The translations under genes were made by a program, and so were the position numbers. From Proteromonas lacertae (taxonomy: Eukaryota), in assembly GCA_002245135.1 (NCBI GenBank), contig NGBS01000611.1, forward strand, positions 1 to 64,000: DNA of 64,000 nt, written 5' to 3'. The notes under the pieces were generated by a model. That model was given only the letters and a program-made list of their open reading frames with translations, did not search any database and had not been told where the DNA came from. Each line of letters begins with the position of its first letter. Within the stretch, counting starts at the first letter, position 1. Below are positions 21,563-57,169 of the stretch, piece after piece.

Positions 21563-24160
21563 TTACTTGGAAGAAATAGCAGCTTGTCTTCTTTGTTGAG
21601 CTTTCAATACTATTTCTTCATTCTTCTTTTCAGCTGCTTTGTTTGTACTTGTCGAAATCTTTCCATTGTTTTGATCAATTATTAAAGGTCTTGTCCAAGC
21701 ATCTCCAGCTTTAGGTTTTTGATTCTTAAAATCTCTAAAACATTCTACCCATCTCTTAGCTGTTTCTATACTATTTTCACCTTCTACTTTCATCACAATC
21801 TTTCTCTCTTTATCACCTGCTTCAAATGCTTTGATTGAAGAATCTCGAACTTTCAATATCAATGTAAATTCATTACTTCCATCTTTATATTCAATTCCAT
21901 TATAACAATCTAATGGAATACTTTGTTTCTCATCAATATATACTTTTCCATAATAACTAGGAACCATTGAATCATAGATTCTCAATACAGCTGGTTCAAA
22001 ATATAATACACAATATCTTCGCTGCCATTTTCCAACTAATCGATCTCGACCACTCTTTAATAAATAACCTTCCATTATTACTTCATAACTAAATGGTTTA
22101 TAAATATCATCATCACTTATCTCATTCTCTTGTTTTATCTTTTCGATTGGAATTACTGTTTCCATTATCTTTTCACTCTTTTCTAAATCTTTCTTGTTAG
22201 TTTTACTTCCACCATTACTTGATAATGATACTACTAATATGGCTACGATTATTCCGATTATTAATACAGCTCCAATACATATTATTAATATCACCCACCA
22301 ATATTCTTCTGCCCAAGGCTTGGAATCTTCTGGAGAATGATCTACTTCATCACCAACTTGTGTTGTAGGTGTGAAATAATCCTCAGATTTTTTAACACCA
22401 TTCTCATTTGCTGAGATAGTAATTTCTTTAACAACTTTTTTAACTACATCTTCTTCAATTACTGTCTGTAATGCTGATTGTATTTCAGGTGGTAATCCTA
22501 TTGGTATTACAATTTCTTCAGGATTTCCAGTATTTTCACTTGGTGCTATTACTGATAAAAGAACATTACCAAATAAAATTGGATCAACTTGATTATTACC
22601 ATCCTTTCCATTTAAAATGTCATTCCAATTTATACCTCCTTCTAACAATCTTCCTTCAAGAGTTGGAAAATCTGGAGCTGTTCCATTTTCAATATATGTT
22701 AAAATGAATCTTATTTTATGATCATTTTCATCATTACCATTTGTTTTATCCTCATATTTATATGGACTAGTATTAAATATTACATTCATGTTTTCTGTAA
22801 AATTATTTTTAAATTCACTAAAACTACCACTACCATCAAATTCAAATGAAAATGCACCTTGAATTTTTGTACAATATTCTCCTTTATATTTTCTTTCACA
22901 ACATAACCCTTGAGGATCTACAGATTTTGGACTATTACATTCTTTATCATGACTAACAAGTATTTTAAACTTATGATTAATATGGTAAATACTATCAGAA
23001 ACACTAACAGTTACATCATCAACACCTTCTTCTTTATTAGTGTTGTAATTAAACTGTAAATCTTTCCATTCAAATGTAGTTGAATTTGAAATTGGTACAA
23101 CTTCTTTTTCATAACCATCTTGAGTAATATTATAACTTCTTGGATTAGTATCATTGAAATTTAATGTTACATCTTTCCTGTACTGCTTTAATTGATCCTC
23201 ATTTTCATAACCAGATATTGTTGGATATTTTAAAGCCAATGTTACATTGAATGGAGTAGATATATTAACAATTACTGGAACTTTTGATAAGATTGTATTT
23301 ATGCCATTTGGTTTATATTCAACAATTGATATAGAAAATGATGAACTTCCTTCTTTATATCCAGTAGCATTACATTTTATAGTACATTTCACATTATTTA
23401 ATTCTACATCTGTTTTAACAGTGACATTATTTTCTATACTATACGTAATATTTGGATTATTTTCATCACAACTAAAATCATAATAGTTAATATCTATTCC
23501 ATTTTCATTTAATTTAGTTGGATTTATTGTTTTAGTTTGACTTCCTACAATAAATTTATATGTAGGATATTGAAACGGACATTTTAATACTTCTTTTTCT
23601 GGTGTTGTTCCAGTTACAGTTTCTGTTGGTTGTGGTGTTGTCGCTGCTGGTTCATCTGTCTCACCACTACCACCTTCATCTTCTGGAGTTGTTGTTACAT
23701 CAGGTTTAGTTGTTCCTTCTGCTGTTGTAGCTTCGTATTTTGTTGTACCTGTGAATTCTTCACCATCATCACCATCTCCTTTTGGTGTTGTTGGACCTGT
23801 TGATCCTTCTTCTGACTTTTGAGTTGTTGTTACTTCAGGTGTTGTTTTTACTGAACCTTCTCCACCATCTTCACCAGTTGGTGTACCTTCTTCCATTTCT
23901 CTTTCTTCATCTAAGTTCATTCGCTTCTTTATTATCAAATCTTCTCCATCATTGTTGGAATTACTATTATTATTATAAAGATTCAAACTTATACTCATTC
24001 ATCTTTCCAGATAAACCATCTCTAAATCCACTTACTAACTTAGACTTCTTTTCTTTACTTAAATCACTTAAACCACTCACACTCACTAAAATCAATGCAA
24101 ACATGCATACTATTAAATTAAACAAACTAATATACCATAGTAAATGTTTAATTTACTCAT
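21563..24160 (-). CDS. Type I surface protein with cytoplasmic PH domain (copy 2; +1 frameshift near 23978)
   Basis: ATG at 24160 and a 26-nt intron at 24110-24135. One extra A relative to copy 3 (ttataaagattc vs ttataagattc) disconnects the signal peptide. TM+PH region is nearly identical to copies 1 and 3. Confidence 0.8.
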
Positions 24161-34606: not shown

Positions 34607-37600
34607 CTATAAAGATACACCAGTATCAGTTCTAGGAATTTGAAATTCAACATTGTTATTTCTGAAAACTTTACATGAGTATTTACCACTCAATGTATTA
34701 ATAATTATTTCCATCAAATCTTTCACATTTGTCTTATCATCAACAATTAAATCAGCATCTTTGTTCTTTCCATCAACATCAACTCTAATAACAGGTACAA
34801 ATGGATGTCCTGGTGCAGCAGGTAAATCACTATAAGCAACAATAACATTAACACCACCACTTGCAATACCAACTAAATTCTCAATCCAACTCTCAGTTAA
34901 ACTCTGCATGATATGGTATTTATTATTTCTATCGCTTAAAGGTACAGTTTCACCAAATAAACAGGTATTTTGTGGTTTAACTTCATGGAATATTTTCTCA
35001 TTATATTCTTTTGATTGAATATGACTGCTTTTCTCTGTTGTTACAATATACATTCCATTACCACCAGCAATTGTTGTTAACTCAATTAATAACTTAATAA
35101 TTGGTTCAGGAAGTGATTTGCTGTGCGTAAATATACCAATACCATAGTTACAAATATCAGTGGTTATTCTTTCAGGTTGTTTTAATTCAGATACTTTAGT
35201 TTTGAGATAATTCTCTACTTTTTCATAACATTTATCAATACCATGATCATTTTGAATTGAAGCTTGTCCATAATCATTAATATTCATATTTAAACCTTTC
35301 ATCTATTCAATAATAATAATAATTAATAATAAATATACGATTTTATCAAAATAAGCAATCAATGTCTTTTCACATCCATGTTCCAATAACAATGTATTTC
35401 TGACATTATTATGAGTTAAATGACCAATCATTACTCTGTCATATAACTTTAATCCATCAAATGGATGATCACCATAACCTTCACCACATCCTTCAGTATG
35501 AGGTAATGCAACAATTCGACTATAAATATCACTAATACGGTTATTAGTTGAAGATGATGAATTGGTCTTTTGTTTCTTTGGTGATTTTCTTTTCTTTTCT
35601 TCATTCTCTAACATAGTTTGGAGGTAAAAAAATAATAAATTAAAGAAAATAATAATAATATATATAAAAAAAATGATATCTTATTGGCATATTTCATAGA
35701 AACTTGTCCTGAACATAAACTAGTAGGTAATACTAAGAATATATTATCACCACCAACTATTTCTCTTTCAGGTAATTTAACACCATCAAATTTCAATGTT
35801 GTTGTATTCACTGATTCAGATATAGGATATGGTGAATGACTTGGTGGTTTTCTTTCCATTGTAACTTTATAATCATCTTTAGAGATATTATACCAATTCC
35901 TCCATATTTGAACCTATATTTATTAATAAATATTTATACTTGTGAATGACCTGCTATTTCTCCTTGTGTTTTTTCACCACTACATACTCTAATCAATCTC
36001 TCAAATGTTTCTTCAGTCAAAGTCTCCATACTCTTACCATCTAAATATTCACCAGCATTCACATCAATATCACCACTTAATAATTCATATCTACCTGTTG
36101 TAGTCATTAACTTAATAATCGGTACAAATGGATGATTAGTTACTGATCCATTTCCTGTACTGAATAAGATAATATTACATCCACTAGCTACTTGTCCAGC
36201 AACTGATTCAATATCATTACCAGGACTATCCATGAAATAATAACCTCTTTCTTTATTCTGACTTCCTTCACTATAATTCAAACAGTAATCTAATCGACAG
36301 CATTCTGGTTTCTTCATTGCTGCACCTAATGATTTGATTGTAATGTTATATAAACCTCTATAGAAGTTTCCACCACTTGGATTACTTTGTGCACTCATTC
36401 CATGATTACCTGCCCATTCATCATAATGGGATTGTAACTGTAAAAAACTCTTTGCAGTTTCTAAATCTTTGACTTTATCTAATATATAACTACCTGCTCC
36501 TATTAATTCATCTGTTTCTGCTAAGATTCCTTTTCCACCTTGTTTGATTATCTTTGCTGCAATATTACCTTGTAATGGATTGGCACTTATTCCACTAAAT
36601 GCATCACTTCCTCCACATTGTAATGCGACGGTTAAATCAGAGAGTGGACATGGTTCTCTTTTGGAACGAGTAAATTGCTTTTTGAATTTATTTACCAGTT
36701 TTCTTCCTTCTTCGATTGTATCATCGAAATTTGGTTTTACTTCGATATATTCTGCTATTACTTTACTAATATCAATTCCTCTACCTGATATCTCTTTATC
36801 GATCATTTCTTTTGTTATGTGACATCTATACATACATAATTAAGAGAATTATATACGATGGTGAAGTTACAACTATAGCAGCACATGTATTTGGATGACA
36901 TATAAATCCAGCTATAGTTCTCAATAAGTAATCAATATTATGAGGAGTTGTATCACAATCATCTTCAGTATGTCTTATACAAGCCAAGCCGTCAAGATTC
37001 TTTGATTTGGCAAATGTATTACCAAATGAATTCACAATTGCTTGAGCATAGGGACCACAAACTGCATTCAAACCAATAACTACTATGAAACTCCTTGTTC
37101 CTACTCCTCTATTTCCTTCACGTTTATAACCGTCAAAGTAACGTAATTCTTTATCCAACGGTAATTGTTCTGCTGGTTTGAAATTCTTTTCATCTAACAC
37201 AAATTCGTCTATTCTATCATCAAAGTTGCATTCTGTTGGTAATTCAAGTGATGGATCAATTACTTCTATTGACATATAAATAATTATAACCACTATAAAT
37301 AGTAAATACTTAAAGCTTCTAATCCTCTTCGATTAATTAGATAATCACCTGGATGTAAATCAGTCAACGTTGTTCCAAATTCCAACCCCCATGAATATAC
37401 GTGTTTACCTTTTGGTATTTCTTCAATAGCAAATCTATGACCTAAACAACAAGTCTAAATTATCATTAAATAAACTAATTTGGTATAATTATTCAATAAA
37501 AAGATATATGTGAAATAGAAACAGTCTTCCCTTCTGGTAGTTCAATCTGTGTTCCTTTTTCTAAACGAACACATGCCACAGCACAATTGTCACCAGCCTT

Positions 37601-37642
37601 AGGAATTCGAGCAATATCATGAAACTTGAGAATCTTGGCCAT
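34607..37642 (-). CDS. UxaA/GarD-family altronate/galactarate dehydratase, extended form (SAF domain + GD_AH core + second degenerate GD_AH-like region)
   Basis: SAF GDNCAVA...HTCCLGHRFA; GVGTR; LQCGGSDAFSGISANP; NPSGGNFYRGLYNITIKSLGA; MDSPGNDIESVAGQVASGCNIILFSTGNG. A second ALPHTEGCG...EHGCEK repeat follows. Six introns. Confidence 0.85.
35624..35679 (-). other. U12-like AT-AC intron (56 nt)
   Basis: AAG|ATATCATTT...TTTTCTTTAAT...TTTTTAC|CTC. Removal joins YANK to LQTMLENEE in frame; no GT-AG alternative was seen. Confidence 0.75.
37455..37507 (-). other. U12-like AT-AG intron (53 nt)
   Basis: CAT|ATATCTTTT...TTTATTTAAT...TTTAG|ACT. Removal restores the SAF motif SH-TCCLGHRFA. Confidence 0.75.
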
Positions 37643-37710
37643 ATTCAATAAAATCTTTGATTTTATATTCTTCAGATTAGCTTGGCTTGATAATTATGAA
37701 AATTTAAAAA

Positions 37711-38665
37711 ATGGACAGTTTCACTACTTGGATGGAAGATAATAAAGATAATTTATCAGATAAAACAATATTTGATATTTTACTACCAGGAACACACGAT
37801 TCTGGTATTTTTCTCATATTTTATTAATTTTACACTAGGAGCATATGCTTTGGGTAAAAGTGTTGGACCAAATGGAGCTGGTTGTGGTATAGCAGGTAAA
37901 TGCAAAAAGTATCACATTTCAATTAGTGGAACTATGAGGAAATGGTCTCAAGCCCAACCAAATTGTATATATGAGCAACTAGATGCTGGTATTAGACAAT
38001 TAGATATTCGAGCATTATGGGATTCACAAGATTGGGTTTTACACCATTGTTTATTAGGTGATAAAATATTAAGAGTTCTTGTTGAAGTAAAGAGTTTTAT
38101 AGAGAAGCATGAATATGAAGTATTACGAATAGATTTTAGTCATACATTTTATTCTGCAGAAGGTTATAAAAATGAAGAATTATTTGATTTAATAATGAGT
38201 TATATTGGTGATTATTGTATTGATAGAGATACAGATCTACATACACTCACATTTGATGATATGTGGAAGACTAATAAGAGGATTTTAGTCACTTTTGATA
38301 GTGACAAAGGAATTGATAATTATAACTGTATTTTTAATTTGTCAACTATCGCTGAAGGGTATTTTTCTAATAAAGTGAAAGTAGCTGAGATGATTGAACA
38401 TAATAATATGTTGTTATCTAAGCATAATCCTAAGTTAATGTTGGATTTATCTTGGACATTGACTCCAAGAGCTGGGAATATTGTGAAAGGTATGTTCCAT
38501 TGTGGCAAAACGAATTTACTTCAATTAGCATCCAGTGCTGATGAGTATCTTACTGATTGGTTGAATACTCATAAAAATGAGATGAAAGGAGTTGTTTTGA
38601 TGGTTGATAACTATGAAAAATGTCCTGATTTAATAACTATGGCTATTCTAATTGCTCAAAGTTAA
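37711..38665 (+). CDS. PI-PLC X-domain (PLCXD/bacterial PI-PLC-like) protein without signal peptide
   Basis: WMEDN...LLPGTHDS|GAY...WSQAQ...EQLDAGIRQLDIR...LHH. One intron near 37805-37838. Confidence 0.85.
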
Positions 38666-38840
38666 TTTATTATCTTATATATTATCTAAATTTAAATAAT
38701 ATTTAATAATTTGTGTGTATTGGCTTATAAATGCATGAAATGTGTAATATGGACATATTTGTGATATATTATTCAACAGCTAAATCTATTTATTTTTAAA
38801 TATTCAAAAAAAGCGCCATTTCAAATTAGATTTGAAATGA

Positions 38841-40595
38841 ATGGGTGTATGATTGATATGAATATTATTTTTATAGATCAAAGGGCTGCTTAAATTTTTA
38901 GAACCATTTGCTAACAGTTGTCACATTCAAAACTATCGTGGCAAACGATTAGCAATAGATGGCAATATATGGCTTCATAGAGGGTATATTAACACTGAAT
39001 ATTGTATTATTTTACATAGTGCTTATTCTTGTGCACTTGAATTGGGATCTGGAGCAAAAACTACAAAATACACAAATTATGTTATGAAAAAGATAGAAAT
39101 GTTACAATATTATGGAATAACTCCTGTAATGGTATTCGATGGTAGAACACCAAAGGTCAAAGATGATGAAGTGCAAAGAAGAGTAGATAAAATGACAGAA
39201 GACAAGACACAAGGTCTATTATTATTAGACAAAATTAACCACACTCCTAGTGGTAAAGATACATCAAAACTCAAATCAGAAGCTGTTTCTCATTTTCAAA
39301 GATGTATTAGAGTAACACCTGAAATGAAGCAAGAGTTAATATTAGTATTAAAAAAGATGAAGATACAATATATCGTCTCACCTTATGAATCAGATGCCCA
39401 AATGACTTATCTCTGCAAAATTAACTATACTCAAGGTATAATCACTGAGGATAGTGATTTAATCGTATATTCAGCAGTAATCAATAAGAGTTATCCAATC
39501 ATAACTAAACTAGCAGATAATGGTGAAGTTGTAGAATATACATTACAATCTATTTTGAATGGAAGTAAAACGGATAAATTTTGGAAACAAATGAAAGTGA
39601 TGAACAATGTAATGTTCATTCAAGGATGTATCATGTCAGGTTGTGATTATTTAAAATCAATAGAAGGAATAGGAACTAATAAATCATTCAAATTATTACA
39701 GAAATATCACATGTATAGTGATGATGAAAGAATTAAACATATTATAATGGAATTACAAAGACAAAGAAAGAAGAATATTCCAGAAAATTATGTGAATGAT
39801 TTTGAGAAATCGTATAATGCATTTTTTACACATAAAGTGATTGATCCTTTTAAGAATAAAATAGTATCTTTGGTATATGATAGTAAAAAAGAAGAAGATA
39901 ATAATAATAAAACTGTTGAAATAACATCAGATATTGAAGATGATGATGATAATAGTGATATTAAAATAGATACAAATATAGTAAATAATATATCATCAGA
40001 AACAACTGATAATAATGATAATCAACATCATACCATGTTTAATCCATTTAGTAGTAATAAATCAATAAAACCATCATTTACACTAAGGAAATCTCCTATT
40101 ACCATTCCATCCAATTATAATCAACCATCTCCTATATCATCTACAACTTCATCAACTGATGGTAATATAAAGATAGTTACACCAAAGATGAGTGTATTTG
40201 ATAAATTCAACTCAATTAAGTCGAAATATCAGTGTTTAGCTAATAAAGATAAAGAAACAGTAAATAATTCTTATACTGCCAATACTTCTACTACTCCTAG
40301 TAAGAAAACTGATATAATTTCACCAATTGATATTAAATCTTTGAGTTATTTCAGTCAAAAGAAGAAATTATATTCTACTAATAGCAATAACAGTTTATTT
40401 AATAATTATTTGATGAGGAAAGCAATGAGTTCTCCACTGAAAATAGATATTGATAGTAAATCTATGAAAAGAACAATTGGTACAGCCAAATGTATATTAA
40501 AAAGAGCGTATTATAATATTTTTATTATCATTATTTATAGAAAGACAGTTCCTGATACTTCATTCACCAATCAACCACCAAATTCATTATTTTGA
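38841..40595 (+). CDS. EXO1: Exonuclease 1 (XPG/RAD2 family)
   Basis: MG|IKGLLKFL...AIDGNIWLHRG|AYSCA; VFDG; VSPYESDAQ; ITEDSDL; SGCDYL.SI.GIG. Confidence 0.9.
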
Positions 40596-40644
40596 TGGGG
40601 TGAATTAATAAATTTGTTAAAATATGTTTATTATCAGTATTTTA

Positions 40645-40882
40645 TGTTGGGAGCAGTATATTCTGGAGTAATCTCAGTTTATATGTAATTTCGTATATAA
40701 ATAATGTATGTTGAATTTAATATATGTATGTTGGTGTTTCTATTTTAAAATGGCAGCTATTGCTTTTAAAAAAAAGAATTTCAGTATTATTTATGAATTG
40801 ATATTCACTTCTCAAAGTATGAATATTAGATATTAATATTCTAAATAGTTGCTTCAAATTTTATTAGATAGTATTGGATTAT
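40645..40882 (+). pseudogene. Heavily deleted remnant of the MFS transporter gene
   Basis: Colinear patches match the reverse complement of 11955-12010 (TTGGGAGCAGTATATTC...AATCTCAGTTTATATG), 10590-10677 (CAGCTATTGCTTTTAAAA...TTCACTTCTCAAAGTATG) and 10518-10580 (TTATTAGATAGTATTGGATT). Confidence 0.85.
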
Positions 40883-40944
40883 TTGATTATTCTTTATAAA
40901 AAATACATTTCAGATATGTAAACTATATTATTATCAAATGTAAT

Positions 40945-43532
40945 TTACTTGGAATTAGATATTGCTTGTCTTCTTTGTTGAGCTTTCAACACTATTTCTT
41001 CATTCTTCTTTTCAGCTGCTTTGTTTGTACTTGTCGAAATCTTTCCATTGTTTTGATCAATTATTAAAGGTCTTGTCCAAGCATCTCCAGCTTTTGGTTT
41101 TTGATTCTTAAAATCTCTAAAACATTCTACCCATCTCTTCGCTGTTTCTATACTATTTTCACCTTCTACTTTCATCACAATCTTTCTCTCTTTATCACCT
41201 GCTTCAAATGCTTTGATTGAAGAATCTCGAACTTTCAATACCAATGTAAATTCATTACTTCCATCTTTATATTCAATTCCATTATAACATTCTAATGGAA
41301 TACTTTGTTTCTCATCAATATATACTTTGCCATAATAACTAGGAACCATCGAATCATAGATTCTCAATACAGCTGGCTCAAAATATAATACACAATATCT
41401 TCGCTGCCATTTTCCAACTAATCGATCTCGACCACTCTTTAATAAATAACCTTCCATTATTACTTCATAACTAAATGGTTTATAAATATCATCATCACTT
41501 ATCTCATTTTCTTGTTTTATCTTTTCAATTGGAATTACTGTTTCCATTATCTTTTCACTCTTTTCTAAATCTTTCTTGTTTGTTTTACTTCCACCACTAC
41601 TTGATAATGATACTACTAATATTGCTACGATTATTCCGATTATTAATACAGCTCCAATACATATTATTAATATCACCCACCAATATTCTTCTGCCCAAGG
41701 TTTGGAATTATCTTCTACAGAAAGTGGTTCATCAGTTGGTTTAGAAGTGAAATAATTATCAGGATCTTTCTTAATACCTTTATCATTTGCTGATTGAGTT
41801 ATTGTTGCAACAGCATCTGTGACAACTTTATTTTCAACTACATCCTTTAATGCATTACCAATTGGTGTACCTTCTAATTCTGGAGGTATTTCTATAGTTC
41901 CATCACTTTTATCACTTGGTCCAATTACTGATAATAAAGCATTACCGAATTGAATTGGATCAACAGATCCATCTCCTGAAAAAAGTGATGTCCAATTGAA
42001 TGGTGCAGGTGTAGCTTCTTCTAACATTCTATTTCTTAGACTATTTCTACCTTCAACGTATGTCATTAATACAACAACTTCATTATTTCCTAAATTATTT
42101 TCACTTGTCTTATCATCCATGATATATGGACTGTTATTCAAAATTAATTTCAAATTTCTAACAAAATCATTCTTAAAAAGTCCAAAATCTTCTTTCTTTA
42201 TTGTTTCACCTTCTGTTGGCTTAAAAGAAAAAGTTCCTTCTATTTTTGTACAATATTCTCCTTCATATGTTAACTCACAACATAATCCTTGAGGATCTTC
42301 CCTATTTGGTGGTTTACATTCTAAATCATGATTTACTTTAATTGTGTAATTAACATCAATTCCGTATTGATTACTATCAACATTAACTTTTACAGGATAT
42401 AAACCATCTAATTTTTCTTCACCCTTATAATTAATTTGTATGTCATCCCAGTTAAATGTATCACTTTTGGTTATTGGTTGTATATCAGTAACATTATCAT
42501 CTTTTGTAATGTTGTAATTATCAGTAACAACTTTGTTAAAATTCAAAGTAACTGGCGTATTTTTATTATCATCTAATTCCTGTTTTGTATAACCAGTAAT
42601 TGTTGGATATTGTAATTCTAATGTTACATTAAATGGAGTTGATAATTTTACCATAACAGGAACTGTTGATAAGTATGGATTAATACCAGTAGGCTTATAT
42701 TCAACAAAATTAATGGTAAAATTTGTTTCTTTACTCTGTCCATCAGCTGAACATTGGATTGTACATGTAACTGAATCACCATTTGGAGAAATTGTTTTAG
42801 GTGTTAAAGTGATATTACCATCCTCACTAAATGTTGGAGTAGTAGTAATACCTTCACAATGAAGGTTTGAATATTTTATTTCCTTACTATGGAAATTGTA
42901 ACTTAATGGTAATAATGTCTTTTCTGTTTCAGAACCATTAATAAATCTGTATGTAGAGTATTGATATTGACATTCAAGAGGTTCTGGTGTTGTTCCAGTT
43001 ACAGTTTCTGTTCCTTGCGGTGTAGTTGCTGCTGGTTCATCTGTCTCACCACTACCACCTTCTTCTTCTGGAGTTGTTGTTACATCAGGTTTAGTTGTTC
43101 CTTCTGCTGTTGTTGCTTCATATTTTGTTGTACCTGTGAATTCTTCATCATCACCATTTGGTGTTGTTGGACCTGTTGATCCTTCTTCTGATTTTTGAGT
43201 TGTTGTTACTTCAGGTGTTGTTTTTACTGAACCTTCACCACTATCATCATCTGATCCAGTACCTTCCAATTCTCTTTCTTCATCTAAGTTCATTCGCTTC
43301 TTTACTATCAAATCTTCTCCATCATTGTTGGAATTACTATTATTATTATAAGATTCAAACTTATACTCATTCATCTTTCCAGATAAACCATCTCTCAATC
43401 CGCTTACTAACTTGGTCTTCTTTTCTTTACTTAAATCACTTAAACCACTCACACTCACTAAGATCAATGCAAATATGCATACTATTAAATTAAACAAACT
43501 AATATACCATAGTAAATGTTTAATTTACTCAT
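40945..43532 (-). CDS. Type I surface protein with cytoplasmic PH domain (copy 3)
   Basis: ATG at 43532 and a 26-nt intron at 43482-43507. Intact ORF with the same architecture as copies 1 and 2. Confidence 0.88.
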
Positions 43533-44035
43533 TATTCAATGAAATAGAGAATGAAATTTAAAATCACTCAACTGCTGTGTAATGATTGGTTTAAATCTTA
43601 TGAAACGGCTCTTTTCATGTTTCATTCGTTTTACATTATTTCTGTGTAATTTGTATTAATTGACTAAATGAATTTAAAAGTCTGAAATATAATAGAAATG
43701 ACTATTCCAAGTATTAAATACTCTTTATCTTCACTAAATCTCTGATTTTTTCTTGTTTATTGTTTAAGTATGTTTTCTAAATCTTCATTACCACAGTGAA
43801 TATGAAAAATATTCCATTTCATTATATCTTCTTCTAATTCACTATTTTAATCATTTTCAGTTGTTTTATCATTCCAATCATATCTTCACTAAGAGTTACC
43901 TTCATTTAAACTTTCAATCATACTAAATTGAATGGATATATACACTTTTCAATAGAATAATATCATCATAAATGGTTTATTTTTGAAATGAAAATACAAG
44001 AATGTTTGATAGTAATCAAGCCTAGATTATTAAAA

Positions 44036-45081
44036 ATGAAAATTCTCACTATTGTGATATTATTTTTACTAATTAATATTGTAAAATGTGAATTAAAGTA
44101 TGAAAGATGGATGGAAGAGAATAAAGAATATTTGTTAAACAAAACTCTGTTAGATGTGATAATTCCAGGAACTCACGATAGTGGAACATACTATTTATCT
44201 GACATAATGGCACCTGGTGGATCTGGAAGTGAATTTGATGTATTTTTAGAATTAGCTGAAATTCTTCATGCTCCAATTGCTGAAATAATGAGACCATGGA
44301 GTGTAACTCAAACAGATAATTTGATAGAACAATTTAAAGCAGGATTTCGACATATTGATTTAAGAGTTTTATGGGATAGAGGTGAATGGCGAACTCATCA
44401 TGCTTTAGAAGGTGATAGAATCTATGATATGATAATTGATATAAAGAAATTTATTGAAAGTCATCCATATGAAGTAATAATTGTTGAATTAGGTCATACT
44501 GATTATTCTGAAATTGGTTGGAATAACACAGAATTAATGTATTTAATAAGTGATATCTTAGGAGATTATATGTTAGAAAATGATTTCAAAGATATATATG
44601 ATTTAACATTCAAAGAAATGTGGGAAAATAATAAACGATTGATATTTATGTTTGATATATTTGATGACACTTTGAATAATAACAAATTCTTTTATTTGAG
44701 TAAAATAAGTGAAGGATATTATGCAAATAGTGCCAATGTTAATGATATGATAAATCATAATGATTATTTAATATCTGATCGAGTAAATTCATTTTTATTA
44801 GAAATATCTTTTACTTTAACAGCTGATGTATATTTATTTATTTATTTATTTATATAATATATTATTAGGGTAATACAATATTTGGTTCAATATTACCCAA
44901 ACATCCAAAATCATTATTGGAATTATCAAAATATGCGAATAAAGAATTGAAGAAGTGGTTATCAAGTCATAAATATGATATATTGGGAAGTATAATAGTA
45001 ATAGATGATTATGCAAGTTGTGAAGCGTTGGTAGAATATGCAGTAGAAATGTGTAAATTACCATTAAATAAAGATAATTAG
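44036..45081 (+). CDS. Secreted PI-PLC X-domain protein
   Basis: Signal peptide MKILTIVILFLLINIVKC; IPGTHDSG; GFRHIDLR; THH. Intron near 44828-44868. Confidence 0.85.
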
Positions 45082-45253
45082 AGTTTTTTATATATAATTA
45101 GTTTATAATCTAAAATTTTTATATTAAAATAATTTTATTATGTTTATAGGTTTGAGGATAAATATTAAATATCAATAATATAATTCAATACAATTAAAAA
45201 AAGAATTAAATGTATTTAGGTTTGATTCCTATCAAGCAATCTCATTCTTCAAA

Positions 45254-46317
45254 ATGAAATATGTCGCTTTGTTGTTGTTAATATTATTAGTTAGCAGTGT
45301 AAAAAGTGATATAAATTATGAAAGATGGATGGAAGATAATAAGGATTTTATTGCTAATAAAACACTCTATAATATTGTTTTACCAGGAACTCATGATACA
45401 GGTATTATCAAAAAATATATATTTGTATAGGATCATATAGATTTTCTGATAATATTGCTCCGGGAGGTTCAGGTGCTGAATTTGACGCTTTTATAAAGTT
45501 AGCTGAAATATTACACATTCCTATAGCTGATGTAATAAGACCATGGAGTTTAACACAAACAGGAAATATAACTCAACAATTATTATCTGGTTTTAGACAT
45601 TTTGACTTGAGAGCAATATTGGATCATAATAATTGGTATACCTATCATGCATTAGAAGGAAATTTAATCCATGATATAATAATAGAATTAAAGAACTTCA
45701 TTACTTCTCATCCTTTTGAAATTGTGTTTGTAGAAGTAGGACATACATATCCATCAGTAAAAGGATATAATAATACTGAATTATTATATCTAATATCTGA
45801 TTTAGTAGGTGACTATATGATTAAGAAGGATATGGATAATAATAAGGAGTTATATGATATTACACTGAAAGAGATGTGGGAAATGAATAGAAGGTTAATA
45901 TTTTCATTTGATGAATTTAGTGATACACTTTATAACGATTATTTCTATTATCATACTTCAATATGTGAAGGTGTTTATGCTAATACTCCCAAAGTTGATG
46001 AAATGATTAAACATAATGATGATATGATTAAAGGAAGAGTGGAAGGGTTTATTATGCAAGTGTCATATACTTTAACTGCTACTGTATTGTTCATTTATGA
46101 TATATTGTAGACTGATACGATTTTAAGTTCAATATTACCAAATCATCCAAAGTCAGTGATTGATTTAGCGAAAAAAGCTCAGAAAGAGTTGAATAATTGG
46201 TTAGCAAAACATAAGACTGATTTATTTGGTAGTATTATAGATGTTGATGATTTTGTGAATTGTAAAGCTGTAGTTGATTTTGCGATTGAAATGGCTAAAA
46301 TACCTTTAAAAGTGTAA
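45254..46317 (+). CDS. Secreted PI-PLC X-domain protein
   Basis: Signal peptide MKYVALLLLILLVSSVKS; LPGTHDT|G; GFRHFDLR. Two introns. Confidence 0.85.
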
Positions 46318-46426
46318 TAATATGATAGTGTGTGATAAAAATATTGATTGGGCAAAAAATAAAAAATAAAAAGGACATGATCTGTCCAAATCCCAATTTT
46401 TCTAATTCAATTTCTGTGTGTTCTAT

Positions 46427-47481
46427 ATGAAATTTCGTCAATATTTAATCTGTTTTGTAATATATATGATAAATTATTCACTTGAATACAAATATGATAG
46501 ATGGATAGAAGAATCTAGATCTATTCTCTCAGAAAAGACACTTTTTGATGTAATGCTGCCTGGTACCCATGATTCAGGAACATATAGTCTTGGTGAAAAT
46601 ATATGTCCAGGTGGTGGTGGAGGTAAAACCAATGAAATCCTCAAAGTCACCAACGCATTGTTATTACCAGTCCAAAAGATAATGAAGAGATGGTCAATTA
46701 CACAGAATGGAAATATAACAACTCAACTAAATGCAGGAATGAGATATTTTGATATAAGAGCATTATGGGATAAGGATCAATGGTATATACATCATGCTCT
46801 GGAAGGTGAATATATTCATTCTGTATTTCACCAAATCAAGAACTTTCTAGATATTCATGTATGAAATTAAGGAAATATATATATAATTGATTAGAAATAT
46901 GAAGTTATTTGGATTGATGTAAGTCATACGGATTTTTCAGCTGATGGATATAATAATACAGAATAATTATACCTAATAACTGATATAATTGGATATTATG
47001 CAATACCAACAGAATTGGAGATAAGAGAATTGAAATTCAAAAGAATGTGGAAGAATGATATAAGGTTAGTGCTAACATTTGATTTATTTGAAGAAACACT
47101 AGAAAATAACAAGTATTTATATAATTATATTATATTAATAATAGATTTTTCTTTGTAAATGATCTCGTTGAAGGTGCTTTTGCAAATACGCCATATAAAG
47201 AAGAAATGATTATTCATAATACCAATCTATTAGATGAAAGAAGTGAAGGATTAATTTTGCAGATTAGTTGGACAATTACTCCAGGAATAGAAACAGTGTT
47301 GTGTTCAGCATTACCTGGAAGACCTCAGAGTTTGCTTGCACTTGCTGTTGATGCTAATAGTGAGTTTTTAAAGTGGTTTAATGCAAAAAGGAAGTTATTG
47401 AAAGGTACTATTGTTATGGTTGATAATTTTGAACAAGCTGAAAGTTTGGTAAAATCAGCTATTTTGATTAGTAGAAGTTAA
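46427..47481 (+). CDS. Secreted PI-PLC X-domain protein
   Basis: Hydrophobic N-terminus; MLPGTHDSG; QLNAGMRYFDIR; IHH. Two introns. Confidence 0.85.
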
Positions 47482-49649: not shown

Positions 49650-50822
49650 TTATACATACTCATAAATATTATTTGACATATAGTACAATCCACCAGGTGA
49701 TAAACCATGAATCCATAAATAATTCTTCTTTATTTCATCAAAATTTATGAATTTTGTTTGTATAAAATCAGATACTCTGTGATTGAATATATTATACTGA
49801 CTAATATTACAATATTGCAGTAACATTCCTAAATAAACATCATCCATAAATATTATCTTCTTCATATAATAAGAAGCATTTAATACTTTCTTAATTGTGT
49901 TTTCTGATAGGAATATACATGGACCTTGTGGATAATCTGGCCAATATTCACCAGAATAAGCAGAATAAGTGACATACCATTTTTTCCATCCATTCATTTT
50001 CGAAGAAATGTGATGAATTACTCTCTGATGTTTGTACACAGCTGAAATCACTGGATATACAGTAGAAATACTATGAAAATGTTCTAAATAATAAGGAATA
50101 TTAAGAAATATATCAATTTGATGCATTACAACATATTTGTAGTTTTTACAATGATTATTTATCCATCTTAAACTGCCAATCATATTATATGGTAGTTTAT
50201 AATACTCTCCAATAAAATCAAACTGAATTATATCTCCATAGTATTGATTTTCTTCACTTATCAATCTATTTATATTGTCTATTTCACTTGTTGTAGTGAA
50301 AAAGAATGTTTGAATAAATGAATAATTATAATACATTTTTCTATAAGTATATCTCTCTAGGAATGATTCTACTGGACTTGTTATTACCAATATTAATTCT
50401 ACACCATTTTTACATGGATTTATTGGGTGGATATTAATATTAATATTAATTGGATGTTTTAATATAAATTTTGGTGAGTATATATTCTTTGCTCTATTTT
50501 TAATACCTTCATATAATAATCCGCACTTCAAGAAATAACGGAATTTGCAATTCATATAAGCATTATATCTCGTAGACAGTCGTTTATTCATATACTTCAC
50601 ATATACTGTATATTTCCTTTTATATACACTTAGATTACCTTCAACCATGGTAAACAAAGGAGGATATTGAGAAGCTTTCTTCAAATCATAACCATTTTGT
50701 AAACAAATCCATAAATCATAAAAATAATCCAATTTCTCAGTATATAAAAAAAGATACATAGTTAAATTAATTGAAATATCTACAATTATAATCAATAGGA
50801 AGAATAAAAAGAGTTTACTCAT
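49650..50822 (-). CDS. GT31 beta-1,3-galactosyltransferase-like, type II membrane
   Basis: N-terminal TM; FLERYTYR; ENQYYGDIIQFDF; WPDYPQGP; MDDVYLG; WIHG. Confidence 0.8.
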   Translation of the reverse strand: MSKLFLFFLLIIIVDISINLTMYLFLYTEKLDYFYDLWICLQNGYDLKKASQYPPLFTMVEGNLSVYKRKYTVYVKYMNKRLSTRYNAYMNCKFRYFLKCGLLYEGIKNRAKNIYSPKFILKHPINININIHPINPCKNGVELILVITSPVESFLERYTYRKMYYNYSFIQTFFFTTTSEIDNINRLISEENQYYGDIIQFDFIGEYYKLPYNMIGSLRWINNHCKNYKYVVMHQIDIFLNIPYYLEHFHSISTVYPVISAVYKHQRVIHHISSKMNGWKKWYVTYSAYSGEYWPDYPQGPCIFLSENTIKKVLNASYYMKKIIFMDDVYLGMLLQYCNISQYNIFNHRVSDFIQTKFINFDEIKKNYLWIHGLSPGGLYYMSNNIYEYV

Positions 50823-50925
50823 TATTCAAGTTTGACAGGAATCAAGCTTACATAAACATTATCAATTATAATAATCACACATCAAAAGAAAAACAACGAA
50901 TCAATTATAAATTAATCCTACACGA

Positions 50926-52042
50926 CTATTGATATAGAGTTTTTGATAAAAAATAAATAGAACCTGGAGTTAAAGCATGAATCCACAGCAAACCATTTCT
51001 AATTTCATCAAAGTGAATATATAGGATGATTTGGATAATTTGACACAATATTCTCATCATAATTACACTGAGAATTAGTTGAACCAGTATAATTCAACAA
51101 CAAACCAATAAATACATCATCCATTGGCAATATCGTTTTAACATGATAAGTAGCATCATCTAATGCATTAATCAAACTCTCTGTAAACATAATACACGCT
51201 GCTGATGGGAAATTAGGGTAAAATGAGAAAGGATAGACAGATTTAGGCACATACCATTTCCTATATATACTACTCGTATCTCTAACTGGTGCATATCCAT
51301 AACGAATTAATCCTATCAAAGGACATACCTTTGTGATTGTAGAATTATAAATATGTGTTAAAAAATATGGAATGTTTATAAATATATCTGTTTGATGGTG
51401 GATTATATATTTGTAATTTGAACAGTGAGACTTTAGCCATCTAATAATACTTATCATTATTACGGAGAGTTTATAATAACTACCTTCAACATTAAATTGG
51501 ATAATATCGTTATACTTTTTGTTTTCTTCTATAATAAATGAATTAATTGTTTGATTTTCACTAAAACCCATAAAGAAAAACAAAGGGTAGTATTCATTTA
51601 GTAATTGGTAAGACTGTCGATATGCATGACGTTCAAGAAATGAATTTGGAGAGGTCATTATAGATATAATCAAATCTGTGTTAATACATTTTGCATTTGA
51701 TTCTAGTCTAATACTTGTTTCTACTGGGAATGCAATAGTATCATTTGGAGGTATATTATTAGCTACTGGCAATTTAAATCCTTCAAAATTCTCACCACAA
51801 TCAAGTATTCCATACTTTGTACAATTTTTATAGTTATTATACCTACTATGCAGCTGTTTATCTAAACGATCGTATAATTCATCATAATTTCTAGATTTAA
51901 ACGGATCTGGTGGTAGAAGATAGAAATACCTTCTTCTTTTAAAGTGAAAACTAGTACTTAGCATAAGTGCAACTGACATACATATCATGAATGTGGAAAA
52001 TGATATGAACAGCACAAGTATAAGCATTTTGAATTCTGACAT
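50926..52042 (-). CDS. GT31 glycosyltransferase-like (frameshift near 51010)
   Basis: Same motifs (ENKKYNDIIQF, MDDVFIG). The conserved tail DEIRNGLLWIHALTPG is in another frame after CTTTGA and ends at TAG 50926. Confidence 0.75.
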
Positions 52043-52116
52043 AGATCTGATTTAACCGCACAAAAATAAAAATAATTAAAAAAAACTCAATAAATAGCTA
52101 CCTAATTAAATAATAT

Positions 52117-53229
52117 CTATATTGGCTTAGTCAATTTCCATATATGATACATAAATCCAGGTTGTACACCGTGCAACCATAATAAATTTGTCTTAATCTT
52201 ATTGACTTTCTTTATACTATTAACAGAACTTCTAACACTATATCTTACATCATATTGCTTAATGTCAGTATTATTCATCAACAGTCCTAAATAAACATCA
52301 TCCATAAATAAAACAAAATCATATGAATAAGACAGTTCACATATTCTATTTGTTGCATATTCTGAAAATAAAATGCAAGGACCTTGAGGATAATCTGGAA
52401 ACTTATCATAAGGATAAACAGACTTAGGTAATTCCCATCTCTTGTAAAAAAGACTGGTAGTATTTCTAATTGGACCTCTATTTGTGTATGTAGATGATAT
52501 AACTTTATATACTTTGTCTTTAACTCCAAATACTTGAAAGTAATACATAATATTAAAAAACACATCGCTTTGATGTTCGACTATGTATTTATACTTTTGA
52601 CAATGTTCATTTAACCATCTTAAGCATCCAATTGTCTGATATGTTAAATTATAATAATGACTAATAAAATTGAATTGAATTATATCATTATATTTTTCAT
52701 TTTCTTCTTTTATAAATTCATTTATTGTTTCATTCAAACTCATTCCAACAAAGAAATAATACTCTACGTCATTATAATATTCATTGTATATCTTTCTATA
52801 TGTATATCTTTCAAAAAACGAATCAGGTGCTGCATTTATTCCAATGATTAATTCCATATTATTTCTACAAATATGTGTTGATTGTATAACATTTTTTATT
52901 ATGATAGGAAATGGCAATAAATACTTTAATGATGTTGTTGTTCTTCTAATGAAAATCTTGTTTCTGCCCTCTATGAGTTTCAAGCATTCTTTCAGAGTAT
53001 AATTGCAAGTATTATACTCACTATCCAACAATTCTAAATATGAATCATATTGCGTATTATTTTCAAAATTATAATCCTGATTTGATCCTCTGTTATTTCT
53101 CAGATTTACTCCATTAAGAAAATTCTGTTCTTGTATATAATCATTAGACAGCATATTATCATATCTGTTTAGAAAAATAATTATCAAAGCCATCATAAGA
53201 ACACAAGCATAAATAAAAAAAAATTTCAT
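52117..53229 (-). CDS. GT31 glycosyltransferase-like
   Basis: N-terminal TM; ENEKYNDIIQFNF; FPDYPQGP; MDDVYLG; WLHG. Confidence 0.8.
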   Translation of the reverse strand: MKFFFIYACVLMMALIIIFLNRYDNMLSNDYIQEQNFLNGVNLRNNRGSNQDYNFENNTQYDSYLELLDSEYNTCNYTLKECLKLIEGRNKIFIRRTTTSLKYLLPFPIIIKNVIQSTHICRNNMELIIGINAAPDSFFERYTYRKIYNEYYNDVEYYFFVGMSLNETINEFIKEENEKYNDIIQFNFISHYYNLTYQTIGCLRWLNEHCQKYKYIVEHQSDVFFNIMYYFQVFGVKDKVYKVISSTYTNRGPIRNTTSLFYKRWELPKSVYPYDKFPDYPQGPCILFSEYATNRICELSYSYDFVLFMDDVYLGLLMNNTDIKQYDVRYSVRSSVNSIKKVNKIKTNLLWLHGVQPGFMYHIWKLTKPI

Positions 53230-53356
53230 TATACATGTTCAAGCTTTTCTTTAAAAAGCTTGAAGTATAAAAACCTTATTTTCTCATTAGTTTATGATTA
53301 TTACTACCTATTAACAATATAACAAATATATATATAGAATAATAATTATTTTATAA

Positions 53357-54234: not shown

Positions 54235-57169
54235 ATGAAAGATCAATTTTATTTGTCATGTATTTTATTTTATTATATATATAGTAATCTTAATCTTAAC
54301 ATGTGTTTTTGTTAGATGTGATAAGGTAGAAAAAGATCCCTTCACAGTTTCTATTTGTAGTTTTGTACCAGAAACTCCAGAACCTACTAGAACACCAATT
54401 CCACCCGTTCCTACAACTCCTAAACCAAAACCAACCACAGATTCAGATACAGGAACTTTTGATGATGATGCTACTGAGTCTGAAAAGCCATCAACTGATA
54501 GTACAACTACAGCTGTTTCTGATACTTCTGCTGCAACATCAGCAACAACTCAAGAAGCAACAACAGCTGACACTACTACACCTGCAGGTACAACAACTAA
54601 GACAGAAGTAGCAACTACTACACCTTTAGATGATAGTACAACTGATGAAGAAAACGAAGGAGGTAATCAAGAGAATCAAGGTAATAATAAAGGTATAAAA
54701 GAAGATGGAGAATTATTAGTTTATAATAAGAACAGATTTTTATTAGAATATGGTGAATTCCCACCACAACAAAATGATGAATTAATCAAATCATTTGCTC
54801 TATCTGCATTTAACACTACCTGTAAAGATAAAGGTCTTGAATTTAATATTGAAGGTATTGAAATTAGTGTTGAATATAAATATACAAAAGGTGAAGATAG
54901 AGTTACATATGAAATTACATTCAGTGAAATATTCATCAATAATACAGTTGAAAATAACAAAACATGGGAAGGAATAATAAATGAATTAGAAGGAAATAAT
55001 GGTACATTTTACTCCATAATGAATAATTTAACTAATGATAATTATACTACCTGTGAAATGCCAAATAGATTGAAAGAACCAACTCCATGTAGTTATGATA
55101 AAACATATTATGAATATTTAGCTATTAATGAGGCTAATGATAAAATTGTAAGTCCTAATGCTACAAATGTGAATGTAAGTTATGCAATATCTTGTACAAA
55201 GGATTATGTTACTCCAGATAACACAAATGGTCAATTAAAAGTAGATATTAAAACAAAACAAAGTTTTGCTTATTGTAATATTCAATGTAGTGCTGAAGGT
55301 TATAGAAATAATTATAATCAATTAACATTCGTCGTTAAAGATAATTTACCTTCTTTTACTAAAGTAGGCAGTGTTGTTCCATTCTATCAGAACTCAGAAG
55401 AAGTATTTAGTATTACAATGAAAGTAGTATATGCAGAAGGAGTAGATGCAACGAGTAAGAAAATGACAATATCTAATTCAGGTTCATGTACATTAGAAGG
55501 AAAAAATGAAGTAGAAGGAAGTACAAAATTTGTATTTAATGATTTGAAGTACAAATGTCCATATACTAATACATTTAGTGAAAGAATAACCTTTACAATC
55601 GAAAGTGTAACAAAACAATATGCAGTTCAAGTAGTTGAAAGGCCAAAGTTTGTACCCAATGAAAATCCATCTACAAATGCAGATGGATCAACTCAAGCAC
55701 CAGTAGAACCTGAATATACATGTAAAGAAGAATTATCATTGGATCCAACAACTAACTTATGTTGTAAAAGAGATGAAGTTTTAGGTGAATCTTGTAATTC
55801 AGTTATTATTTCATTCCCATTTGCAAAGACAGGTTCTGAATCTATTACAAAATTAGATGAAGGTTTTGTTGAAGATTATATAAAGATGCTTAGACAATAT
55901 GCATTTGATGAAAGTAATTTCAATTTTACGATTATAAATGATGGGAGTGATATGAAAATTGAAATTAATGTAAAGTTTTACAGTCAAAAGACATTCATAT
56001 ATAGTGGTGGTGAATTAATAAGAAGAAGATCATTGCAACAAGGAATGAATTGGAATGCATTACCATCACCATTTTTATATATTCAAACAGTTGTTTCATA
56101 TATTGAGCCAACTGCTGTAACAGATACTAGCGGAGAAGGAAATGTTGCAAATGAAATACCACCAATATTACTAGAAGCATTTCCTGAAGCTACAAAAGAC
56201 ACAATTATCAGTAAAATAGAAACTGTAAAAAAAGAAGCATCAGTAGCAGCTACACAGATATCAGCTGAATATAATGTTGTATTAGATACAGAACAAGGAA
56301 TATCATTAATGCCATCAGTTGATAATACTGCTGTAGCACCAGAAGTAACAAATGGAAGATTAGAAACAGTGAGTAAACCTGATGATAAATCATGGGCTGA
56401 AAAGAACTGGTGGGTTATATTAATAATCTGTTTAGTTGTGGTTATTCTAATAGCTGTGATTGGCGTTGTTTTATATATTAAATTATCCAATAAATCAGGT
56501 GGTGGTTCATCTTTATCTCCAAGATCTGTTTCAACATCAAAGAAAGATTTAGAAAAGAGTGAAAAGATAATGGATACTGTTATTCCATTAGAAAAGTTCA
56601 AAGAGGATAATGGAGTAGAAGATGAAGATATTTATAAACCATTTACATATGATGTAATAATGGAAGGATATTTATTGAAAGAAGGACATGATAGAGTAGT
56701 TGGTAAATGGCAGAAAAGGTATTGTGTATTATATTATGATCCTGCAATCTTGAGAATCTATGATTCAATGGTTCCTAGTTATTATGGCAAAGTATATTTA
56801 GAAGAGAAGCAAAGTATTCCGTTAGATTGTTATAATGGAATTGAATATAAAGATGGAAGTAGCGAATTTACATTGGTATTGAAAGTACGTGAATCTAACT
56901 TAAAGACTTATGAACCAGGTGATAAAGAAAAGAAGGTGATAATGAAAGTAGAAGGTGAAAATGCTAAAGAAACAGCTAAGAAGTGGGTAGAATGTTTTAG
57001 AGATTTTAAGAATCAAAAACCAAAACCAGCTGAAGCATGGACAAGACCATTAGTAGTGGATGAAAGTAGTGGGAAAATTACAACTACAACAGAAAGAGGT
57101 GCTGAAAAGAAGAATGAAGAGATCATTAATATGGTTAATCAAAGAAGAAAACAAACAAGAGAGAATTAA
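54235..57169 (+). CDS. Type I surface protein with cytoplasmic PH domain (copy 4, most divergent, longer ectodomain)
   Basis: ATG at 54235 and a 25-nt intron (54260-54284) at the same codon-9 phase-1 position as copies 1-3. The frame is open from 54285 to 57169. TM WWVILIICLVVVILI; PH VIMEGYLLKEG...WQKRYCVL. Confidence 0.85.

Follow-up and report, generated by a model that had tools for sequence, protein, structure and literature searches.

Two likely minor-class AT-start introns in a dehydratase gene of the Blastocystis/Proteromonas lineage, at positions that favour gain

The stretch of DNA analysed here (64,000 nt, referred to as the window) carries a UxaA/GarD-type gene of the altronate/galactarate dehydratase family, which is interrupted by four GT-AG introns and by two introns that start with AT (Table 1). 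Joined by homology, the seven exons would give an mRNA for a double-length sugar-acid dehydratase of about 900 aa, in which a GD_AH_second plus GD_AH_C module is followed by a second GD_AH_second module (Pfam matches: GD_AH_C and two GD_AH_second). Apart from the introns, the frame is intact across its 929 codons, and it is colinear from end to end with the bacterial double UxaA proteins of about 900 aa and with Blastocystis hominis CBK21964.2; its score lies under the TIGR03248 equivalog cut-off. A search of the ESM Atlas with the dehydratase returned bacterial UxaA clusters only, the ortholog pattern had no match in viral contigs, and the exon-1 frame of the window had no exact match in the protein collection searched.

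Table 1. Positions of the dehydratase gene, its introns and further features of the window.
Feature	Position	Strand	Description
Dehydratase gene, UxaA/GarD-type	34607..37642	minus	929 codons, seven exons, six introns
Dehydratase exons	37642-37508, 37454-37310, 37265-36857, 36825-35940, 35913-35680, 35623-35339, 35302-34607	minus	model joined by homology
Intron 1	37455..37507	minus	53 nt, AT-AG, phase 0 after codon 45; U12-like 5' end ATATCTTTT
Putative branch box, intron 1	37465..37470	minus	TTTAAT; adenosines 12-13 nt from AG
Intron 2	37266..37309	minus	44 nt, GT-AG, phase 1 after codon 93; position common to Blastocystis-type orthologs
Intron 3	36826..36856	minus	31 nt, GT-AG, phase 2 after codon 229; position common to Blastocystis-type orthologs
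Uninterrupted site after codon 465	36119..36120	minus	canonical ATATCCTT intron here in Blastocystis-type orthologs
Intron 4	35914..35939	minus	26 nt, GT-AG, phase 0 after codon 525; in Blastocystis-type orthologs and the P0241 cluster, not in the P0242 cluster
Intron 5	35624..35679	minus	56 nt, AT-AC, phase 0 after codon 603; U12-like 5' end ATATCATTT
Putative branch box, intron 5	35639..35645	minus	CTTTAAT; adenosines 17-18 nt from AC
Intron 6	35303..35338	minus	36 nt, GT-AG, phase 0 after codon 698; in-frame stop inside; none in Blastocystis-type loci
Predicted single-pass membrane protein, four copies	7736-10312, 21563-23998, 40945-43524, 54239-57169		
PI-PLC-X-like genes, tandem array	37700-47480		about four genes
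In-frame TAA in PI-PLC-X-like gene	46964-46966	plus	
GT31 galactosyltransferases, tandem array	49650-53238		three genes
Coiled-coil plus RPGRIP1-type C2	58389-59627	plus	just above Pfam cut-off

The window gene groups with B. hominis CBK21964.2 and with intron-bearing metagenome loci (support 100/99) and has three GT-AG intron positions in common with the Blastocystis-type orthologs, from which we conclude that it is orthologous to the Blastocystis gene. CBK21964.2, a member of the same family, is thus an ortholog by tree, whereas OAO15613.1 of subtype ST1 (Lind et al., Table S6) was matched by annotation alone. The window gene and two clusters of related proteins (P0241 and P0242) make up an AT-rich branch that is sister to the human-type subtypes. 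At about 28%, the GC content of the window is closer to the 27.0% published for Proteromonas lacertae than to the values for tortoise Blastocystis (21.5-23.1%) and for human subtypes (39-55%). Among its other genes, a DnaJ has its best named matches in oomycetes, and a PMR1-type ATPase scores above cut-off, a family counted in Proteromonas and in 0 of 8 Blastocystis genomes. A further gene combines a coiled coil with a C2 domain of the ciliary RPGRIP1 family, for which the excerpted Table S5 of PMC12129017 has a Proteromonas count of none, and which therefore speaks against a placement with Proteromonas. The host is probably an AT-rich member of the Blastocystis/Proteromonas group. Each copy of the predicted membrane protein joins an N-terminal part rich in Thr to a PH domain at the C-terminus, the latter near-identical among the four. 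The in-frame TAA in a PI-PLC-X-like gene, of which two paralogs in the window are uninterrupted, marks either a pseudogene or a base error.

The first-pass annotation had described both AT-start introns from the sequence, and its coordinates, ends, lengths, sequences and TTTAAT boxes, all on the minus strand, proved exact. It had also stated that their removal restores the frame, which holds, as the frame is kept only if each intron is removed, 53 and 56 nt not being divisible by three. All frame-keeping junctions up to 48 nt from each intron end were enumerated and ranked against orthologous proteins. With five Blastocystis-type orthologs as reference, the junction left by intron 1 came first among 870, tied with a 1-nt slide that yields the identical mRNA. 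For intron 5, seven proteins of the P0242 cluster (66-71% identical), which read through the site, placed the AT-AC junction fourth among 2128. The three junctions ahead of it, by 2.4 points at most, have TA-TG, AT-GA and TA-AG ends, which are not recognised splice ends, and AT-AC is the best of those with recognised ones. An AC is also found at 37453-37454, two bases beyond the AG of intron 1; as an acceptor it would shift the frame and lead to an early stop.

Both introns start with the RTATC core followed by TT at +7/+8 (ATATCTTTT and ATATCATTT), unlike the major donors of the window. The strict textbook RTATCCTT is not matched, since +6 is T in intron 1 and A in intron 5 instead of C, in keeping with the relaxed consensus that had been suggested. 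Although only 48 of 128,001 positions match the pattern ATATC[ACT]TT, a rate of 3.7e-4 per site, it stands at both homology-fixed breaks, which is far beyond chance. As placed by the homology ranking, the AT-AC and AT-AG termini fall within the AT-AC, GT-AG and tolerated AT-AN forms. The adenosines of the TTTAAT box lie near the 3' end (Table 1), the optimum distance being 11-13 nt in the excerpted text of Turunen et al. (PMC3584512). The box also occurs in 2 of 40 GT-AG candidates, and a branch box at 9-21 nt arises in 12% (intron 1) and 24% (intron 5) of 10,000 shuffles of the intron interior; by itself, it is weak evidence.

The ordinary introns used for comparison were 40 GT-AG candidates, hand-picked from 68 heuristic clusters in the window. 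These measure 23-44 nt (median 32.5), so that the earlier range of 25-44 nt was about right and both AT-start introns are indeed longer. They use GTAT(A/T) donors: 38 of 40 have T at +4 and a single one has C at +5, whereas both AT-start introns have C at +5; the acceptor is TAG in 40 of 40. The rarity of G at +5 among the ordinary donors (3 of 40) and the uniform TAG hint at a divergent U1/U6 pairing in the host. The length offset, 53 and 56 nt vs 23-44 nt, parallels that in the Blastocystis-type loci (40 vs about 30 nt). The ATATC core, the TT at +7/+8, the length beyond that of the neighbours and phase 0 support the proposed U12-like class, and introns 1 and 5 are likely minor-class (U12-type) introns with a drift from C to T/A at +6 and in the branch box. 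We infer their splicing as well as its machinery. Two heuristic scans of the window gave no further convincing AT-start candidate, the best-looking one (minus strand, 47523) being antisense to a gene end. No mobile element shared between introns 1 and 5 was found, only short AT-rich matches, and no inverted-repeat signature was seen at them by eye.

Within the 64-kb window, U11, U12, U4atac and U6atac had 0 Rfam matches. A minor spliceosome has been published for Blastocystis ST1 and ST7; in ST1 all four snRNAs are present together with seven proteins specific to it, and 319 genes hold 346 U12-type introns (PMC5608401), and the count of Larue and Roy for ST1 is 253 minor introns, 77% of them AT-AC and 49% in phase 0, with a median of 39 nt (PMC10639083); these and the other papers given by PMC or bioRxiv number, as well as Olthof et al., are cited for excerpts. 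Set beside these figures, neither the very short length nor the occurrence of two minor introns in one gene, both of which the first-pass annotation had put forward as noteworthy, is so. Its description of AT-AG as an unusual subtype stands as far as rarity is concerned, yet this is the commonest non-canonical subtype in the excerpted data of Sheth et al. 2006 (20 of 66; PMC1557818). The U11/U12-25K domain has been counted in Proteromonas and in three tortoise Blastocystis, and not in Cafeteria (PMC12129017, part of Table S5). The AT-start introns are likely a relaxed variant of the minor system known in Blastocystis.

A degenerate-pattern scan of metagenome contigs returned 20 loci, namely 10 bacterial-type and 10 intron-bearing Blastocystis-type ones (about four distinct types). 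All 10 of the latter carry a ATATCCTT intron after codon 465, a site that is read through by the window, by 13 of 13 proteins of the P0241 cluster and by 7 of 7 of the P0242 cluster. Among 69 cluster members checked, 61 cover this site, of which 60 read Ile-Ser-Phe/Leu into the intron and one Val-Ser-Phe. The 3' end was placed in nine loci: six end in AC, of which five measure 40 nt and have a CTTAAC box and one measures 158 nt, and three end in TG. The three TG-ending introns (L012 2886-2847 (-), L015 352-391 (+) and L019 3768-3807 (+)) are 40 nt long, start with ATATCCTT, must end in TG for frame and homology and hold a branch-like box, TCCTTCA; AT-TG ends are not in the table of non-canonical ends of Sheth et al. 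as excerpted (PMC1557818). In one Blastocystis-type lineage (L010 3768-3925 (+), L016 from 1141 (+)) the intron has grown to 158 nt by trinucleotide repeats. B. hominis CBK21964.2 (P0379) is two residues short at the site, as expected if its annotation took a GT six bases upstream. Further introns proposed by the spliced aligner were left out of the count: one of 72 nt with an open frame in L003/L018, and those in L012/L019 near codons 331-334 and 391.

The Blastocystis-type copies are without introns 1, 5 and 6 and have introns of their own after codons 163, 465 and 726. Site 45 is empty in 7 of 7 Blastocystis-type loci covering codon 45, that is, at one outgroup level. Site 603, which sits in a variable linker, is empty in 8 of 8 Blastocystis-type loci covering it and in the 7 of 7 sister proteins of the P0242 cluster, that is, at two successive outgroup levels. 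The gene thus has three minor-type sites (45, 465 and 603), all in phase 0, whose distributions do not overlap.

The first-pass annotation had made the newness of the AT-start introns conditional on a bacterial origin of the gene. Homologs are mostly bacterial (50-59% identity, many phyla, no close donor), and the galactarate/altronate dehydratase of Blastocystis ST1 was reportedly proposed as a transferred gene by Eme et al. in 2017. Three further eukaryotic homologs come from one haptophyte and two dinoflagellates (P0311, P0323 and P0347), the other homologs found being bacterial, and the distribution in eukaryotes is patchy. A quick tree (95 rows) split the eukaryotes, with the dinoflagellate and haptophyte copies among bacteria; holding the eukaryotes together, however, was 58 log-likelihood units better, and the AU test did not reject this clade (p-AU 0.916). 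In a careful, unrooted tree (45 rows: 7 of 11 from the group, 3 other eukaryotes and 35 of 81 bacterial; 713 columns, LG+G4), all ten eukaryotic rows lie on one side of a branch with support 97/88. Separate transfers of the dinoflagellate and haptophyte copies were dropped on account of both results, while the grouping of the eukaryotes could come from long branches. Lind et al. 2025 classify the ST1 gene as 'Not HGT' and report orthologs of it from both Cafeteria and Proteromonas (excerpt of PMC12129017 Table S6). In the careful tree the gene does not fall within the bacteria separately from the remaining eukaryotes, and the free-living Cafeteria has it too; the best description is a gene of bacterial type with a patchy distribution that is nevertheless old in these eukaryotes, and the premise of a bacterial transfer into this lineage is weak. 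Since no recent transfer can be demonstrated, the age of the gene sets no tight bound on that of its introns, and the case for gain has to rest on the intron map.

From our point of view, three other explanations of the AT-start introns have to be weighed, two of which concern their nature. Splicing might take place at nearby GT-AG or GC-AG sites, an A might have been miscalled for a G, or the gene might be a pseudogene. In-frame options do exist, namely a sole GT-AG alternative of 68 nt at junction 1 (37522-37455) and GC-AG alternatives of 83 and 95 nt near junction 5, both from 35688; against the bacterial profile alone the 95-nt one scores 986.9 vs 985.7 for the AT-AC intron, and the three residues directly after junction 1 are unlike those of the orthologs. 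However, these alternatives delete residues that the orthologs conserve, five of them in the 68-nt case, and with rank 169 of 870 for the latter and 822 of 2128 for the best GC/GT-AG junction at intron 5 they were rejected. Exon 1 runs into Ile-Ser-Phe-Tyr-stop in the window and likewise in all six close-relative sequences, which are about 89% identical and come from 39 contigs; because all six read Ile, where G would give Val, a miscalled G is ruled out for intron 1, the intron which this check covers. The frame being otherwise intact, we regard this set of explanations as highly improbable, and the comparison with orthologous proteins confirms both predicted AT-start junctions. The second explanation accepts these junctions and lets the major spliceosome remove the introns as U2-type AT-AC/AT-AG introns that drifted from the GTAT donors of the host. 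U2-dependent AT-AC introns exist (PMC1557818), C at +6 is missing, and the ordinary introns come near to the AT-start ones in their T at +4 and in the TAG end that intron 1 shares with all 40 of them. What speaks against it is the C at +5 of both introns, their length beyond that of all 40, the AC end of one and the canonical minor system of the relatives; it appears improbable to us, if less so than the use of other sites.

The remaining explanation takes the minor introns as real but old, all three having been present in the ancestor shared with Blastocystis and then differently lost by the lineages. Such losses are frequent in this group, as 11 of 12 alignable minor introns of ST1 are absent from B. 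hominis (PMC10639083), and the P0242 lineage is without intron 4, which both other groups have. The gene is also older than the group, and minor introns tend to occur together in the same genes (Sheth et al., PMC1557818). However, the ancestral gene would have held three minor introns among about ten positions, whereas ST1 has 346 genome-wide (PMC5608401), and site 603 would require two independent losses vs one gain. That many minor introns in a single ancestral gene would be unusual, which is why gain is preferred and common ancestry of all three appears rather unlikely. Of the earlier claim of de novo gain, the argument from bacterial transfer therefore fails, and the lineage-restricted positions favour it. 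The three non-overlapping sites favour gain within the Blastocystis/Proteromonas group, where the gain of at least one site, ranked ahead of pure loss, has moderate support; a phase-0 bias was likewise read by Larue and Roy as possible recent gain of minor introns in Blastocystis (PMC10639083). On balance, we consider it probable, though by no means certain, that the AT-start introns are minor-class introns with an AT-drifted consensus, gained within this lineage after the gene was already eukaryotic. In this reading, U11 and U6atac would recognise ATATC(T/A)TT and U12 the TTTAAT box. Intron 5 would then have arisen on the branch leading to this organism, and intron 1 and the codon-465 intron each on one side of the deepest split.

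One could speculate on how such a gain proceeded. The GTAT(A/T) donors of the host are two substitutions away from ATATC, and a new short intron might drift into recognition by the minor spliceosome; AT-AG, as in intron 1 with its AT start and TAG end, would be a half-way form of such a major-to-minor conversion. No relative compared has an ordinary GT-AG intron at site 45 or 603. Turunen et al. consider the conversion highly unlikely, the minor donor being stringent (PMC3584512), whereas Olthof et al. infer some major-to-minor conversions. It is a tentative idea, which we hold to be possible rather than probable, that the gut stramenopiles of the Blastocystis/Proteromonas group are a second lineage after Physarum that still creates minor introns, with three independent gains in this gene, favoured by major donors drifted to GTAT, and with AT-AG caught as an intermediate.

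The introns of the window resemble the U12-type introns of Blastocystis ST1, which belong to the same lineage and are short, AT-starting, in phase 0, longer than the major ones and sometimes more than one per gene (PMC5608401, PMC10639083). They differ in that the Blastocystis-type site keeps ATATCCTT and a CCTTAAC-like box, whereas the window introns have T/A at +6, TTTAAT, 53-56 nt and one AG end. Both papers suggest recent gain; the mapping of sites on orthologs, as done here, is not part of their excerpts. The mass gain of U12 introns in Physarum polycephalum likewise involves altered signals with T for C at +6 (bioRxiv 10.1101/2020.10.12.336362, as excerpted), but comprises over 20,000 minor introns and a proposed transposon signature, as opposed to just two in the 64 kb of the window, out of some 40-70 candidate introns. 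AT-AG U12-type introns with A at +1 and an AG end as in intron 1 have been described as proposed intermediates between AT-AC and GT-AG (PMC1557818, PMC3584512); in these excerpts they concern human, mouse and Arabidopsis and the switching of old introns, not new positions.

Searches for earlier literature on altronate in Blastocystis found none, although the ST1 intron at site 465 may be among those given in the supplements of PMC5608401. Among papers on Proteromonas and the spliceosome, none was on minor introns as judged by title or the start of the abstract, and those on U12-type intron gain and horizontal gene transfer were reviews or unrelated work. New minor introns are considered near-absent, with one case cited by Turunen et al. 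(PMC3584512), and Larue and Roy see very little evidence for gain outside Physarum and call for comparative work on recent gain in Blastocystis (PMC10639083, both as excerpted). What is new here is that the Blastocystis-type orthologs are without introns 1 and 5 but have a ATATCCTT intron at a third site.

Overall, the dehydratase gene does not give the clean proof that an intron in a bacterial gene must be new. The present analysis adds an AT-rich Blastocystis relative to the organisms with likely minor splicing, here under a relaxed consensus, and with three mappable, non-overlapping sites in one gene, the gain of minor introns becomes directly testable in existing genomes.
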